Virus record (IMG/VR): IMGVR_UViG_3300007960_000033
Coordinates: 1-52,365 of that record
Direction: 5' to 3' (one strand)
Length of the DNA stretch: 52,365 bases
Origin: a virus
Lineage: Duplodnaviria; Caudoviricetes
The notes under the pieces were generated by a model. That model worked only from the letters and a program-made list of their open reading frames with translations, was not told where the DNA came from and did not search any database. Positions 42,735 to 52,365 of the stretch are shown here, one piece after another. The translations under genes were made by a program, and so were the position numbers. Position 1 is the stretch's first letter. Each line of letters begins with the position of its first letter.

Positions 42735-44177
42735 ATGTTTCAATCAGAAAGATTGCAGGAAAAGTGGGCACCCCTTCTTAACCATGAGGGTCTTGATCCA
42801 ATCAAAGATTCACATAGAAAGGCTGTAACTGCTGTCCTGCTAGAAAACCAAGAAAAATTCCTAAGAGAGCAACAAGCTTTCAATCAGTCAGGTTCATTCC
42901 TTACTGAATCTCCAACAATGTCAGCTGGCACTGGTGGATTTACAGGTGCTTCCGCTGAAGGCGGTCCTGTAGCTGGTTTTGATCCCGTACTGATTTCTCT
43001 AATCAGACGTTCTATGCCTAACCTGGTCGCTTATGACCTCGCTGGCGTTCAACCAATGACTGGTCCTACTGGACTAATCTTTGCAATGCGTTCACGCTAT
43101 ACTGATCAGAATGGTCAGGAAGCACTATTTGATGAAGCAGATACTCGCTTCTCTGGTCAGAATACTGCTGGCGATCTTGCACAAACTGGATATACCAGCC
43201 CATCTGGTGATGTCGGTATTGGTACAACTGCAGCACAATCTGGCAACACCAACCCAGGTCTTCTAAACGCTTCTGGCGAGTATAACGTTTCTGGTGGTAT
43301 GAACACTGGAGATGCAGAAGGTCTAGGTTATGGTGACAATGCAGGTTTCAACGAAATGGCCTTCTCAATCGAGAAGATCACCGTTGCTGCAAAGTCAAGA
43401 GCACTCAAAGCTGAGTATTCACTAGAACTCGCTCAAGACCTCAAGGCAATCCACGGTCTAAATGCTGAGGCAGAACTTGCTAACATTCTTTCTAGCGAGA
43501 TTCTTGCTGAAATCAACCGTGAAGTTATCCGTAGCATCTACATCACTGCAGAAGCTGGTGCTCAGCAGAATGTTGCTGTTTCTGGTCAGTTTGACCTTGA
43601 TGTTGACTCCAACGGTCGTTGGTCAGTTGAGAAGTTCAAGGGTCTACTTTTCCAAATCGAGCGCGATGCTAACCAAATCGCAACCAGAACTCGTCGTGGA
43701 AAGGGCAACATCATCCTCTGCTCCGCAGATGTTGCTTCCGCTCTAACCATGGCAGGTGTACTTGATTATACCCCTGCACTAAATGCAAACCTCAACGTAG
43801 ATGATACTGGCAATACCTTTGCTGGTACTCTAATGGGCAAGTATCGCGTATATATTGACCCATATGCTGCTAACCTAACTAATCGTTCTGGTAGTGCTGG
43901 CAACGTTGGTGGTAACCAGTATTATGTTGTAGGTTATAAGGGTTCTTCCCCTTATGATGCAGGTCTATTCTACTGCCCATATGTACCCCTACAGATGGTA
44001 CGTGCAGTTGGAGAAAACTCCTTCCAGCCTAAGATTGGATTTAAGACTCGTTATGGTCTTGTTGCTAATCCATTCGCTGAAGGTGGACTTGCTTCTGGCG
44101 CATCAACCACACTTGGTCGCCTTGCAGCAGACACCAACCGTTATTACAGAAGAGTTCTTGTTAAGAACCTTATGTGA
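42735..44177 (+). CDS. gp23: Major capsid protein
   Basis: GVQPMTGPTGLIFAMR; SRALKAEYSLELAQDLKAIHGL; FQPKIGFKTRYG. Confidence 0.99.
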   Translation: MFQSERLQEKWAPLLNHEGLDPIKDSHRKAVTAVLLENQEKFLREQQAFNQSGSFLTESPTMSAGTGGFTGASAEGGPVAGFDPVLISLIRRSMPNLVAYDLAGVQPMTGPTGLIFAMRSRYTDQNGQEALFDEADTRFSGQNTAGDLAQTGYTSPSGDVGIGTTAAQSGNTNPGLLNASGEYNVSGGMNTGDAEGLGYGDNAGFNEMAFSIEKITVAAKSRALKAEYSLELAQDLKAIHGLNAEAELANILSSEILAEINREVIRSIYITAEAGAQQNVAVSGQFDLDVDSNGRWSVEKFKGLLFQIERDANQIATRTRRGKGNIILCSADVASALTMAGVLDYTPALNANLNVDDTGNTFAGTLMGKYRVYIDPYAANLTNRSGSAGNVGGNQYYVVGYKGSSPYDAGLFYCPYVPLQMVRAVGENSFQPKIGFKTRYGLVANPFAEGGLASGASTTLGRLAADTNRYYRRVLVKNLM

Positions 44178-44205: not shown

Positions 44206-44232
44206 AGAGACCCGAAAGGGTCTCTTTTTTTA
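44206..44232 (+). terminator. Intrinsic terminator after gp23
   Basis: AGAGACCC-GAAA-GGGTCTCT followed by a T run. Confidence 0.92.
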
Positions 44233-47294: not shown

Positions 47295-47834
47295 ATGATT
47301 TATACAACAATGCCTAGAGGAAAAAGATCAGAACACTATGTCAACAATAAAGAGTTTCTTTCTGCTCTTATTGATTACCAAATTTCTGTAGAAAAATCTT
47401 ATTTTAATGAGTTTGGTAAAATTCCAACCAAAGAAGAAAGATCGAAGTTGTGGGATACAAAACCAGTAATACCAAAGTATATTGGACAATGTTTTTTAAA
47501 GATTGCAACTCATCTTTCATATAAAACAAACTTTATCAATTATTTGTTTATTGATGATATGATTTCAGATGGAATAGAAAACTGCGTCCAATATATTCAT
47601 AACTTTAACTCTGATAAATCAAAGAATCCTTTTGCGTATTTTACTCAGATTATTCATTATGCATTTTTGAGAAGAATACAAAAAGAAAAAAGGCAGTTAG
47701 AGATTAAGAATAAAATATTAGAAAAAACAGGATATGATGAGGTATTTTGGGATGATACAAATACCATTGACAACTCAAATTATTCTGACTATAATAGCAT
47801 TAAAGAAAGCGTTCACATGAAAATCAGGTATTAA
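47295..47834 (+). CDS. gp55: Late transcription sigma factor
   Basis: HYVNNKEF; DMISDGIENC; NPFAYFTQII.YAFLRRI.KEK. Confidence 0.96.
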   Translation: MIYTTMPRGKRSEHYVNNKEFLSALIDYQISVEKSYFNEFGKIPTKEERSKLWDTKPVIPKYIGQCFLKIATHLSYKTNFINYLFIDDMISDGIENCVQYIHNFNSDKSKNPFAYFTQIIHYAFLRRIQKEKRQLEIKNKILEKTGYDEVFWDDTNTIDNSNYSDYNSIKESVHMKIRY

Positions 47835-48886
47835 TGAAAGTAGCTATTATTACAGACACTCATTATGGAGCCCGCAAGGGATCTAAAGTATTTCATGACT
47901 ACTTTGAACTTTTTTATAAAAATATATTCTTTCCTACACTTGAAAAGTATAAAATAAATACCATAATTCATATGGGAGATGCTTTTGATAGTCGTAAATC
48001 AATAGAATATACTTCACTAGAATGGTCTAAGGAAGTAGTTTTTGATCCGCTTTCAAAATATGATGTCCATATGATAGTAGGAAATCATGATACATATTTT
48101 AAAAATACTAGTAAAGTAAATTCTCCAGATTTACTTCTTAAACAATATCCAAATATAAAAACATATTCTAATCCGCAAGAAGTAACTATTGGTGGACTTG
48201 ATATTTTATTTTTACCTTGGATAAATGAAAACAATCAAGATACTTCTCTTTCTCTTATTAAAAATACAAAATGTTCTTGTGCAATGGGACATCTTGAAAT
48301 AAATGGTTTTAGAGTTAATCCTCAGATTGTTATGGATCATGGAATAGAAAGCACCCCATTCAAAAAGTTTTCTAAAGTTTTTTCTGGACATTATCATACC
48401 AGATCTGATGATGGAAGAATTTTTTACTTGGGAAATCCTTACGAAATGTTTTGGAGTGATGTGGACGACACAAGAGGATTTACAATATTTGATACAGAAA
48501 CTTTAGAACATTTTCATATCAATAATCCATATAAACTTTTTCATGTTTTAGAATATGATGATAAAAATGAAAAAGATTCATTTAAATATTTGCATTTTGA
48601 TTCATCAGAATATGAAAATAAGTTTATTAAAGTTATTGTAAAAAATAAAACAAAACCAAAACAATATGAAAAGTTCTTAGACAAGATTTATCAATCAAAT
48701 GCTCATGAAGTAAAAATAACAGAACTTTTTACTTCTGAAGAAATGTTTGTTGAAGATGAAATTGATTTGGAAAATACAGTTTCTATTTTAGATAAACATA
48801 TCGAAGAGACTGATATTGATTTAAATAAAAATGAAATAAAGAGAATAGTTAGAAAAATATATAAAGAAGCGTTTGAGATTTCTTAA
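47834..48886 (+). CDS. gp47: Recombination endonuclease (Mre11/SbcD-like)
   Basis: DTHYG; GDAFD; GNHD; SGHYH metallophosphoesterase motifs. Confidence 0.95.
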   Translation: MKVAIITDTHYGARKGSKVFHDYFELFYKNIFFPTLEKYKINTIIHMGDAFDSRKSIEYTSLEWSKEVVFDPLSKYDVHMIVGNHDTYFKNTSKVNSPDLLLKQYPNIKTYSNPQEVTIGGLDILFLPWINENNQDTSLSLIKNTKCSCAMGHLEINGFRVNPQIVMDHGIESTPFKKFSKVFSGHYHTRSDDGRIFYLGNPYEMFWSDVDDTRGFTIFDTETLEHFHINNPYKLFHVLEYDDKNEKDSFKYLHFDSSEYENKFIKVIVKNKTKPKQYEKFLDKIYQSNAHEVKITELFTSEEMFVEDEIDLENTVSILDKHIEETDIDLNKNEIKRIVRKIYKEAFEIS

Positions 48887-49144
48887 ATGTATATAATAAC
48901 TATAGATGGAAGAGAAGACGATGGTGCTTACTCAGTACGAGATGAATATGGGGAAAAAATCTTGTATATTTTTGAAGAAGAAGATGATGCTGTAAGATTT
49001 GCTATGATGCTTGAAGAAAATGGCTCACCTAAAATGAACTGTATAGAAGTTCAAGAAGAACTTTTAGTTCAAGCTTGTGAAATGCACGGGCATAAGTATA
49101 AAATATTTACCATCGATGATTTTGTAATACCACCAGATTTATGA
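48887..49144 (+). CDS. Hypothetical protein, 85 aa
   Basis: Clean ORF coupled between gp47 and gp46. Confidence 0.85.
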   Translation: MYIITIDGREDDGAYSVRDEYGEKILYIFEEEDDAVRFAMMLEENGSPKMNCIEVQEELLVQACEMHGHKYKIFTIDDFVIPPDL

Positions 49145-50853
49145 TTACTTTCAAAAAGATCAGATACAAAAATTTCCTTTCTTCTGGAAATAGTTTCACA
49201 GAAATAGATTTAAATAAGAGTAATACTACCTTGATTATTGGTCAGAATGGATCTGGAAAAAGTACTTTTTTGGATGCATTAACTTTTTCTCTTTTTAGTA
49301 AGTCTTTTAGAGGAATCAATAAACCACAACTAATAAATTCTACAAATGATAAAGATTGTTTGGTTGAGATTGAGTTCACTATAGGAACTGTAGATTGAAA
49401 AGTTTGTAGAGGAATAAAACCAAATATTTTTAAAATCTACAAAAATGATGAAATGCTAGATCAAGATTCATCTTCAGCAGAACAACAAAAATGGTTTGAG
49501 CAAAATGTTTTGAGAATGAACTACAGCTCATTTACTCAGATTGTTATTCTTGGTAGTAGTAACTTTGTTCCTTTTATGCAACTTCCTGCGGGAAGTCGTA
49601 GGGAAGTTATTGAAGATCTTCTTGATATTAAAATATTTTCTTTGATGAATCATGTCATAAAAGATAAACTTAAGAATCTCAAAAATGAAACTATTAAACT
49701 AGACTTAAAAAAAGAATCTCTAGAAGAAAAATGCCAAATGCAAAAAAGTTTTATTTTAGATATTGAAAATAGAGGGAAAGAATATATTAAAAGTAAAACA
49801 AAGGAGATTAATAATCTAATCTCAGAAGAAAATGAAATAGAAAAAGAAGTTATTGAATGTGAAGATAAGATAAATGATTTAAAAATACAGTTAGAAAAAT
49901 ATTCCAAAGCATCAGATAAGTTACGTAAGTTAGGAAATATTAAAGGAAAACTATCGCAAAAAGTTTCTACTATAGTAGAAGAATATAAGTTTTTTGAAGA
50001 AAATACGGTTTGCCCAACCTGTACTCAAAGTATAGAGAATACATTTAGGTTAAATAAGATTAGTGATGCTAAAATAAAAGCAAAAGATTTACAGAATGCT
50101 TATGATGAGCTTGAAAAAGCTATTAGTGATGAGGAAATAAGAGAACAAAAGTTCATCGAAATTTCTTCTGTAGTAACTAACTTAACGCATGACATTTCTA
50201 AAAAAAGCTCTAGGATTTCTTCCATACATGGACAAATCCAATCATTACAATATGAAGTTCAAAAAACTCTCACCGACAATGAAAACAGAACTATTGAAAA
50301 TGATAAACTAGAAAAGTTTCAACAAGATTTAGATGATTGTACTAAAGAATCTAAAATAGTTGAAGAAGAAATAGAAAATCATAAGTTTATATCAGAGTTA
50401 TTGAAAGATTCTGGAGTAAAGTCTAAAATCATAAAAAAATATCTTCCAATAATAAATAAACAGATTAATAGATATCTTGAGTTGATGGATTTTTACATCA
50501 ACTTTAAACTTGATGAAGAATTTAAGGAAACTGTAGAATCTCCTATTCATGAAGATTTTTCTTATCAATCTTTTAGTGAAGGAGAAAAACAAAGAATAGA
50601 TCTCGCTTTGCTTTTTGCATGGAGAGAAATTTCAAAGATTAAAAACTCCACTAATACAAACCTTTTGATCATGGATGAAATTTTTGATAGTTCTCTTGAT
50701 GGATATGGTACTGATGATTTTCTAAAAATTGTTAGATTTATAATCAAAGATTCTAATATCTTTGTCATCTCTCATAAAAATGGGTTAGAGGACAAATTTG
50801 AAAGTGTCATAAAGTTTGAGAAAGTTAAAGGTTTTTCCCGTATGGTTCCCTAA
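49141..50853 (+). CDS. gp46: Recombination ATPase (Rad50/SbcC-like) with one in-frame TGA at 49396-49398
   Basis: Walker A GQNGSGKS lies in the first track ORF; CPTC hook, FSEGE signature and LLIMDE Walker B lie in the second; both ORFs share one frame. Confidence 0.9.
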
Positions 50854-50867
50854 ACTGCTAAAGAACA

Positions 50868-51089
50868 ATGAACACCCCAAACTGGCAGCACCACTCCAAG
50901 AAAGAACAGAAACGAAAACTAAAACCGCAAGCACTGAGGCAAGCGAAAGCACGTCTTGCCCACTTTAAAAAGTGTCACATGACCTCGCCCAAAAAGCGAG
51001 GTTCTTTTGTATCGTATATTCATACGCAACAAACCAATGTCTGTTTCACACGAAATCAAGTCTCAACTTGCCAAACTTCTTGCTACTGA
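50868..51089 (+). CDS. Small basic protein (PNWQHHSKK motif); 3' end uncertain
   Basis: ATG 14 nt after the gp46 stop; K/R-rich first 45 aa; the frame runs through a terminator and into the next gene. Confidence 0.6.
   Translation: MNTPNWQHHSKKEQKRKLKPQALRQAKARLAHFKKCHMTSPKKRGSFVSYIHTQQTNVCFTRNQVSTCQTSCY
50981..51010 (+). terminator. Intrinsic terminator inside the small basic ORF
   Basis: GACCTCGC-CCAAAAA-GCGAGGTT followed by CTTTTGT. Confidence 0.7.
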
Positions 51090-52365
51090 GGATTTGGTGG
51101 TAGAGCATAAAAAAGTCTCCACTGCCTGCTTCAATGTCCATACTCGTGTTCTGACACTTCCTTTGTGGAATAAAGCAAGTGGTATCGTTTACGATCTTCT
51201 TGTTGGTCATGAAGTTGGACACGCACTGTTTACTCCTGATGAGGATTGGACGGATAAAGTAAAAATTCCTCCCCAATTCGTAAACATCGTTGAAGATGCT
51301 CGCATCGAGAAACTGATGAAGCGCAAGTATGCTGGACTTGCTAAAACTTTTTTCAATGGATACAAAGAACTTAACGAAGAAGATTTCTTCCAGATTGCTG
51401 ATGATGATATTTCTACCTTTAATCTTGCCGATCGTGTAAATCTTTATTTCAAGATTGGCAATTTTGTAACTCTTGATTTTAATCAAAAGGAGCAAGAAAT
51501 CCTTGATTTGATTTCTTATTCTGAAACTTTTGCTGATGTTTTGATTGCTGCAGAGGAACTTTACAAGTATTGTAAAAAAGAAAAAGAACAAGAACAAAAG
51601 ATTGCTGACCTTGATTCTCATGAAATGAAGGGAGATTCTCAGTCTCCTGCAAATGAGGTAATAGAGACTAATGATTCCTCTTCTGAGCAAGATAACGATA
51701 ACAATAACTCACAACCACAGGAAGATGATGGTTCTTATGGAGGCACAGCTCAAGGAGATCAAACTCCAACAAGTTTTGCTGAAGAAGAAAGTGAACCCGA
51801 AGTTCATACTGCAGATTCTTTAGAAGAAAAAATTCGTAATCTTGTTGGATATGATCAGTCTGAGAATACTTATGTAGAAGTTCCTGAATTAAATCTTAAT
51901 ACTATCATTGCCAAAAATTCTGATGTACATAAAGAGATTGATAATTCTTTTCAGTATCAGCAAAATCAACATAATGCATGGGCAAAAGATAAAGAAATCG
52001 TTCCCTCAAATCTTTACAAAGAATCTGATGTAGAGTTTAAAAAGTTCAAGTCTTCTGCACAGAAAGAAGTCAACTATCTTGTGAAAGAGTTTGAGTGCCG
52101 TAAAGCAGCAGACCAGTATGCTCGTGCGTCAACTGCTCGCACTGGTGTTCTTGATACTGCTCGTCTTCATACCTATAAGTATAATGAGGATTTGTTCAAG
52201 AAGGTTTCTGTGATTCCTGATGGTAAGAATCATGGTCTGGTATTTGTGTTGGACTGGAGTGGTTCTATGTCTCATGTAATGCTTGACACTTGCAAGCAAC
52301 TCTTCAACCTTGTGTGGTTCTGCAAAAAAGTTAATATTCCTTTTGAGGTTTATGCTTTCACCAAC
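51037..52365 (+). CDS. Peptidase / CobT-like protein (HExxH plus vWA), partial at 3' end (not in supplied track)
   Basis: MSVSHEIKSQLAKLLATE...HEVGH...NIVEDARIE; acidic linker; DWSGS MIDAS motif near 52252; frame stays open to the window end. Confidence 0.9.
   Translation, partial: MSVSHEIKSQLAKLLATEDLVVEHKKVSTACFNVHTRVLTLPLWNKASGIVYDLLVGHEVGHALFTPDEDWTDKVKIPPQFVNIVEDARIEKLMKRKYAGLAKTFFNGYKELNEEDFFQIADDDISTFNLADRVNLYFKIGNFVTLDFNQKEQEILDLISYSETFADVLIAAEELYKYCKKEKEQEQKIADLDSHEMKGDSQSPANEVIETNDSSSEQDNDNNNSQPQEDDGSYGGTAQGDQTPTSFAEEESEPEVHTADSLEEKIRNLVGYDQSENTYVEVPELNLNTIIAKNSDVHKEIDNSFQYQQNQHNAWAKDKEIVPSNLYKESDVEFKKFKSSAQKEVNYLVKEFECRKAADQYARASTARTGVLDTARLHTYKYNEDLFKKVSVIPDGKNHGLVFVLDWSGSMSHVMLDTCKQLFNLVWFCKKVNIPFEVYAFTN

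Follow-up and report, generated by a model that had tools for sequence, protein, structure and literature searches.

Genes whose messenger RNA (mRNA) ends before a stop codon are rare, and the characterised ones, which encode ArfA and BrfA, sense failing trans-translation. The ArfA of proteobacteria is described as a small basic protein produced from an mRNA devoid of a stop codon (PMC6881298; PMC10107115). In the account of brfA given in PMC6881298, an intrinsic terminator is located inside the 71 codons of the gene, the last codons are present in the DNA and absent from the mRNA, and the product of about 62 residues is kept at a low level by trans-translation. A precedent for a phage-borne rescue factor is provided by gp30 of the marine pelagiphage HTVC027P, reported with an ArfA domain (PMC12753301). 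Among the 162 genomes of a cyanobacterial group listed in Table 1 of PMC11633108, smpB is present in 161, ssrA in 155, arfB in 90, and arfA in none. Here, we analyze a small open reading frame (ORF), located at positions 50868 to 51089 of a 52,365-nucleotide (nt) viral DNA (IMG/VR record IMGVR_UViG_3300007960_000033, hereafter the window), in which an intrinsic terminator is embedded in the coding frame. The window belongs to the genome of a T4-like cyanomyovirus, and its region 50400-51500 is 66-75% identical to the DNA of Synechococcus and Prochlorococcus myoviruses in which gp46 is followed by a gene for a 'peptidase'.

The ORF is carried by the plus strand and comprises 73 codons, from an ATG located 14 nt 3' of the gp46 stop codon to a TGA at positions 51087-51089. 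A terminator-like stem-loop (50981-51003; 8 bp, including five G-C pairs, with a loop of 7) followed by a T-rich tract (51004-51012) is located within the frame. A preliminary description of this DNA had claimed that no in-frame stop codon precedes the hairpin and that the first one lies about 50 nt inside the next gene. Both statements hold: the TGA begins 84 nt beyond the stem, the ATG of the peptidase gene is at 51037, and the ORF ends 50-52 nt into that gene. The 47-residue peptide proposed in the same description is the translation of codons 1-47 and contains 14 lysine or arginine residues versus a single acidic residue. The interpretation that we favor, with a probability of roughly 0.4, is that the ORF is a genuine small-protein gene in which the terminator of the transcription unit is built into codons 38-47 (50979-51008), that its mRNA would lack a stop codon, and that its product would be gated by transfer-messenger RNA (tmRNA). 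The likeness to brfA resides in the position of the terminator within the frame of a small ORF and in the lack of constraint on the codons located beyond it; the likeness to ArfA resides in the small size and basic character of the protein and in the predicted stop-less mRNA. Unlike BrfA, the protein is phage-encoded and some members of its family are produced from genes with normal stop codons. By its architecture, the locus matches the brfA/arfA kind for the two features that can be assessed from sequence, namely the location of the terminator within the frame and the dispensability of the codons that follow.

The ORF encodes a member of a protein family. Its residues 1-35 matched positions 1-36 of the phrog_3309 profile (E value of 6.1e-14), which has 42 positions and no described function and corresponds to a gene found in many marine cyanophages. 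Searches by tblastn with the first 36 residues returned 210 records, all from cyanophages or marine viruses, and searches with the 47-residue query returned 214 records, with one copy each, including four weak rows from Salmonella phages. Amino-acid identity was 50 to 97% in these 210-214 phage records. Matches to the shorter query included the T7-like podoviruses P-SSP2 (Autographiviridae) and P-SSP3, cyanophage 9515-10a (a 47-kb record), and the distinct myovirus S-TIM5. The copy present in P-SSP2 (positions 1201-1344 of the fetched locus) is located among small hypothetical genes and ends with an ordinary stop codon. Evidently, members of this small-protein family have been transferred between groups of cyanophages that are unrelated to each other.

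Protein databases provided the same picture. Clusters related to the ORF numbered 519 (25-83 residues, E value ≤ 0.01), and the 120 that were listed had no name beyond 'hypothetical protein' and no Pfam domain. In the ESM Atlas, the only matches were clusters of the family itself, consisting of viral hypothetical proteins of 46-47 residues (scores of 0.91-0.93). In 185,579 species genomes, only six loci matched, all in single-cell or metagenome bins, one assigned to Prochlorococcus and the others to bins labelled archaea, Sphingobacteriales, Rhodopirellula, and Rhodobacteraceae; these six loci are probably phage contigs binned with cells. Gene clusters 587, 729, and 1213 of the T4-like phages contain the same hypothetical small cyanophage proteins, with PHM2_134 and SSM2_131 as annotated relatives. 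In public records, the gene is otherwise unannotated or misnamed ('gp5 baseplate hub', part of 'cAMP phosphodiesterase'). No Pfam family matched the 73-residue ORF at an E value ≤ 0.01, and nothing meaningful was obtained with 73 members of the family, for which the best matches were FAM199X (E value of 0.15, 6 of the 73 members) and Exotox-A_target (E value of 0.22, one member). Literature searches, which covered main texts, retrieved no description of the phrog_3309 family or of a terminator within a cyanophage ORF, and a motif search of the literature retrieved no paper. By sequence, the small ORF belongs to phrog_3309 and to nothing else.

AlphaFold2, applied to the 47-residue peptide with 73 relatives, predicted helices at residues 11-16 and 20-38 and loose ends (mean predicted local distance difference test, pLDDT, of 72.6). 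The model was kept out of fold searches since one or two helices produce meaningless matches. The conserved core of about 37 residues (codons 1-37, 50868-50978), delineated by the profile match, the codon-position entropies, and these helices, is predicted to be largely helical.

The limits of coding constraint were determined in 66 loci with identical spacing, based on the entropy at each codon position and on the share of codon differences that were synonymous. In codons 2-33, entropies were 0.43, 0.26, and 0.95 at the first, second, and third positions, respectively, and 60% of the codon differences were synonymous. This pattern therefore excludes a non-coding element, an explanation in which an RNA or DNA element would end in the terminator and the open frame would be due to chance. 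The region does contain more G+C and more A than its surroundings, and many records leave it unannotated, as might be expected for such an element. Against it, three-base periodicity and mostly synonymous change were observed over codons 2-37, identity was detectable at the amino-acid level in all the tblastn records, and the tRNA scan and the Rfam search (gathering thresholds) each returned no match. We give this explanation almost no chance of being correct.

Past the T tract (+144 to +168 relative to the ORF), the entropies at the three positions were 1.29, 0.83, and 1.22 and the synonymous share was 0.10. Where the small ORF overlaps the peptidase gene, its own frame had a synonymous share of 0.005, and the pattern tracked the peptidase frame. 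Codons 48-73 (51009-51089), including the TGA, are incidental because there is no constraint past the T tract. In agreement, the position of the first in-frame stop codon varied among 100 hairpin-bearing loci, its distance from the stem ranging from 5 to 96 nt. As judged from these comparisons, the functional coding region ends at the terminator, after about 46-47 codons, and not at a stop codon. The terminator-defined product has the size of the family members ending with ordinary stop codons (41-48 residues).

The hairpin at 50981-51003 folds at -12.1 kcal/mol versus a mean of -4.24 kcal/mol (standard deviation of 1.95) for shuffled sequences (z of -4.03), and none of the 200 shuffles was as stable. 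Under a single rule, a strong hairpin and a T tract were detected at this place in 98 of 117 unique related loci, as compared with 6 of 1991 140-nt control windows located elsewhere in the same loci. Therefore, the layout is not due to chance. Sixteen of the 117 loci were missed by the initial hairpin rule; 14 of these were shown by RNAfold to have a GC hairpin at this location, and a modified rule was used for the larger count reported below. In 155 hairpin-bearing loci, 80 distinct hairpin strings with 46 distinct 5' arms were found at the same offset. When the 5' arm of one locus was combined with the 3' arm of a different one, full pairing was obtained for only 180 of 5034 cross-combinations. 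Full pairing of each 5' arm with its own 3' arm is true by construction of the detector, the informative values being the cross-pairing figure and the rate in control windows. The arms were counted by script, since a MAFFT alignment of 45 hairpins placed them in shifted registers, so that no covariation counts were drawn from it. These comparisons indicate that the hairpin itself is under selection.

Three sequencing runs matched the locus; two were metatranscriptomes with small shares (0.17 and 0.10), and the third was of unknown kind (0.39). At 85% likeness, all of the matches were contigs of relatives. Two of these runs had no cover at about 50960-51047, a gap that cannot be read as termination since the contigs originate from relatives.

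The conservation of the layout was evaluated in named phages and in loci collected with three IMG/VR queries. Each query had more than 420 confirmed matches, of which the 80 best were used, and the loci in IMG/VR number more than 560 in all. Removal of identical 200-nt stretches left 177 unique loci, a sample that is not random and contains many close relatives, so that the counts overstate the number of independent events and weigh less in favor of our interpretation than their size would suggest. In 155 of the 177 loci, the ORF overlaps a GC-rich hairpin with a T tract, and its first in-frame stop codon lies beyond the GC stem. The distance from the stem to the stop codon exceeded 12 nt in 121 of them and was 0-12 nt in the remaining 34. 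The preliminary description would have been contradicted by orthologues that usually stop before the hairpin; none of the 155 hairpin-bearing loci stopped before or inside the stem, and none of the 177 loci did so before or inside a real terminator. The layout was retained in the Prochlorococcus phages P-SSM2 and P-HM2, which are far from the window, and occurs wherever the gene closes its unit. The Synechococcus phage S-SKS1 also has it. The architecture is thus real and non-random.

The same data can be accounted for in a simpler manner. The ORF may encode an ordinary small protein, made mainly from read-through or ribosome-protected transcripts and tolerant of random tails, with a terminator overlapping unconstrained C-terminal codons through genome compactness; the missing stop codon would then have no regulatory meaning. 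We regard this explanation as quite possible. It accommodates the free variation of the residues encoded by the hairpin, the stop codon found almost directly after the T tract in 34 of the 155 loci, and the existence of long forms already called as coding sequences (CDSs), such as PHM2_134 (66 residues) and clusters of 48-73 residues. It is also in agreement with the members that have ordinary stop codons or are fused to other proteins in several lineages, so that synthesis from a non-stop mRNA is not necessary for function. The distribution of stop codons argues in the other direction. Neutral early stops would be expected in the loop or in the 3' arm; between +96 and 8 nt past the stem in the first 100 hairpin-bearing loci, stop codons were found in 50 and 33 loci for the other two frames versus only two loci for the frame of the ORF, both in the T tract. 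Unconstrained tails of 1-26 random residues would also be odd for a 47-residue protein that is otherwise under strong selection. Finally, the phage uses the conventional order elsewhere, albeit in a single case. A second strong terminator-like hairpin of the plus strand (44206-44225; 8 bp, then seven T) is located 28 nt after the stop codon of a 480-residue ORF (42735-44177). Apart from the terminator of the small ORF, it is the only strong one of the plus strand that adjoins the end of a gene in the window.

Several observations weigh against a tmRNA-gated product. The T tract of the window is interrupted, and a ribosome following closely behind RNA polymerase could block formation of the hairpin, leading to read-through. 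In the 34 loci with a stop codon 0-12 nt after the stem, some of the terminated RNAs might include this codon. Twenty of the 177 loci had no terminator-like hairpin and displayed ordinary stop codons or fusions, and two additional loci had a stop codon before a weak hairpin lacking a T tract. Ordinary stop codons in the absence of a terminator at that place were found in S-PM2 and S-RIM32 (41 residues each), P-RSM4 (43), P-SSP2 (47), and P-SSM4 (48). In S-RIM2 and S-RIM8, the frame of the core continues into a protein of 169-174 residues, the gene for which follows gp32. Therefore, the peptide works without non-stop synthesis in these phages. Sequence comparison with the known rescue factors was also negative. 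A profile of 73 members searched against all PDB chain sequences, which include BrfA in ribosome complexes, had no match at an E value ≤ 10, and PF03889 (ArfA) matched neither the 73 members at an E value ≤ 10 nor the 73-residue ORF at an E value ≤ 0.01. If the cyanophage protein is an analogue of ArfA, it is thus an unrelated one. In this respect it differs from gp30 of HTVC027P, which is an ArfA member by sequence, and its hosts are cyanobacteria; the two have in common that they are marine-phage genes. The ArfA-like non-stop architecture put forward in the preliminary description is therefore borne out for the conserved layout and for the end of coding constraint at the terminator, and not as a property of the whole family, as it is missing from the 20 loci mentioned above and from several named phages.

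Additional features were observed in the divergent loci. In P-RSM4 (positions 1201-1332 of the fetched locus), the last codons of the ORF run into an annotated tRNA-Leu gene (1312-1395). In S-SM2, a stop is present at codon 46 and is followed by an additional 64-residue gene and then by a hairpin preceding the peptidase gene. The fusions of S-RIM8 (1201-1710) and S-RIM2 (1201-1725) contain a signal-peptide-like stretch right after the core and a glycine-rich tail. One cluster related to the S-RIM fusion carries PF05433, and the record name 'cAMP phosphodiesterase class-II precursor' looks like a misnomer. Gene callers also produced two other types of fused proteins. In those of 777-778 residues, which form clusters of 23 and 28 members, the frame of the small ORF continues past the terminator into the peptidase; in those of 595-624 residues, the small ORF is joined to the end of gp46. 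The latter two types of fusion are probably artefacts of the missing stop codon.

The position of the ORF 5' of the peptidase gene raises the question of a role in cis. In attenuators of the trp type, translation of the leader ends ahead of the terminator or at it, the RNA can adopt an alternative anti-terminator structure, and the sequence of the peptide is free except for the regulatory codons. The cyanophage locus resembles these attenuators by the presence of a short ORF beside a terminator, 5' of a gene, and differs from them by the conservation of the peptide, the apparent lack of an alternative fold, and the variety of the downstream genes. One of the two proposals of the preliminary description was a leader peptide of this kind, the translation of which would govern read-through into the peptidase gene. 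A ribosome translating behind the polymerase would suppress termination, thereby coupling transcription of the peptidase gene to translation of the ORF. The spacing between the ATG codons of the ORF and of the peptidase gene is in favor of this possibility, as it is nearly fixed, ranging from +161 to +176 in 116 of 160 loci from the three search groups, with 169 nt in most loci including the window. Insertion of extra genes is far more frequent on the 5' side of the ORF than in the interval separating it from the peptidase gene. The region from gp46 to the small ORF, with a length of 17 to about 1400 nt, constitutes an insertion hot spot and harbors a gene for a 2OG-Fe(II) oxygenase in P-SSM2.

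The distribution of late promoters is also relevant to this possibility. The motif TATAAAT is described as the T4-type late-promoter motif (PMC3037559). Within the 32 nt that follow the stem, it was found in 23 of the 36 loci lacking a peptidase gene after the ORF versus none of 121 loci in the peptidase context, and the peptidase gene may accordingly depend on read-through. In the non-peptidase loci, the T tract runs directly into TATAAAT, with a gene start about 20-30 nt further on, forming a junction between a terminator and a late promoter that is read across by the ORF.

Other observations make a leader function unlikely. The same peptide precedes genes for an HNH endonuclease or endonuclease V, a tRNA gene, or late-promoter units, and is operon-internal or fused elsewhere. 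A cis-acting leader would not need a peptide sequence conserved between T4-like and T7-like phages. No anti-terminator was found in the minimum-energy or centroid fold of 50868-51012, as computed from this single sequence. Finally, a stop codon in the loop would still allow the ribosome to melt the 5' arm, yet none was seen. Control of peptidase read-through is therefore less favored, as the same peptide is found before many different genes and in the middle of operons of other phages.

Returning to the tmRNA-gated small-protein gene, the proposed mechanism would be as follows. RNA polymerase terminating at the T tract would generate an mRNA of the small gene lacking a stop codon. Translation of this mRNA would leave a peptide of about 46-47 residues held on a ribosome stalled at the mRNA 3' end. 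The stalled complex would be a substrate for trans-translation by the tmRNA and SmpB of the host, and the product would be tagged for degradation. If the peptide is made mostly on stop-less mRNA, its level would be set by the trans-translation capacity of the host. The comparison of loci shows that the ORF is a genuine gene with a conserved hairpin, that its frame remains open across this hairpin, and that coding constraint ends there. Termination in vivo is a step that we infer rather than observe, as are the gating of the product by tmRNA and gating as the function under selection. An ArfA-like role gated by tmRNA, proposed by analogy, is plausible but unproven.

A more specific version of this mechanism involves recruitment of a release factor. 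Complex prediction with the peptide and RF2 from a Prochlorococcus single-cell genome gave a score of 0.47 versus 0.01 for the best control, with a pLDDT of at least 57 for the partner and contacts agreeing by at least 78% between runs. In the calibration of such predictions, 58 of 80 solved complexes and 2 of 110 mismatched pairs attained the mark. The limitation of this result is that scores of 0.60 or less were obtained for 7 of the 80 solved complexes and for both of the passing mismatches, a range in which a prediction is more often wrong than right unless the interaction was likely beforehand. The model thus provides weak support for a contact between the peptide and RF2. A complete scenario would be a cyanophage rescue factor gated by trans-translation, analogous to ArfA and BrfA and unrelated to them in sequence, which would accumulate only when the tmRNA of the host is overwhelmed in the course of infection and would then recruit host RF2, thereby freeing ribosomes for phage protein synthesis. 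Taken as a whole, we consider this scenario rather doubtful.

The genes located upstream from the ORF indicate its place in the phage transcription program. A sigma-70-like promoter site (47767-47795, plus strand; 12 of 12 hexamer matches, 17-nt spacer), detected by a consensus scan that does not imply function, is located ahead of gp47 and likely marks the start of the unit closed by the terminator at 50981-51003. It is followed, on the same strand, by genes encoding a gp47-like nuclease subunit of the calcineurin-like phosphoesterase type (47834-48886; PF00149, E value of 1.4e-10), a small DUF3110 protein (48887-49144; PF11360, E value of 5.5e-13), and the SbcC-like gp46 (49141-50853). The unit likely consists of the promoter, gp47, the DUF3110 gene, gp46, the small ORF, and the terminator. 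The small ORF is the last gene of this gp47-DUF3110-gp46 early/middle transcription unit. The end of a CDS overlapping the next ATG is a usual sign of translational coupling, and the annotated upstream CDS ended 1 or 4 nt into the ATG of the ORF in seven of ten named-phage loci. Counts of ATGA at the start of the ORF are meaningless in this respect, since its second codon begins with A. The peptidase gene (51037-52365, plus strand; phrog_459, E value of 1.6e-185) continues past the end of the window.

The gp46 gene is a single frame interrupted by one in-frame TGA (49396-49398), the aligned residue being W in gp46 of S-SM2 and Y in S-SKS1. This TGA might result from a nonsense mutation or from an error in the assembly, or might act as a leaky stop codon. 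It does not reflect a change in the genetic code because the other long ORFs of the window are all intact.

Even if the rescue hypothesis is wrong, the analysis defines a real small gene that is widely unannotated or mis-annotated and whose true coding end is the terminator. Annotation should thus avoid calling forms of 48-73 residues or fused forms. T4-like and T7-like cyanophages are among the most abundant viruses of the oceans. If the rescue-factor interpretation is true, the protein would supply a factor that cyanobacteria lack, arfA being reported in none of the 162 genomes of Table 1 of PMC11633108. Conserved over more than 150 marine cyanophage loci, the terminator-in-ORF layout bears on whether phages monitor or repair the ribosome pool of the host during long infections of Prochlorococcus and Synechococcus.
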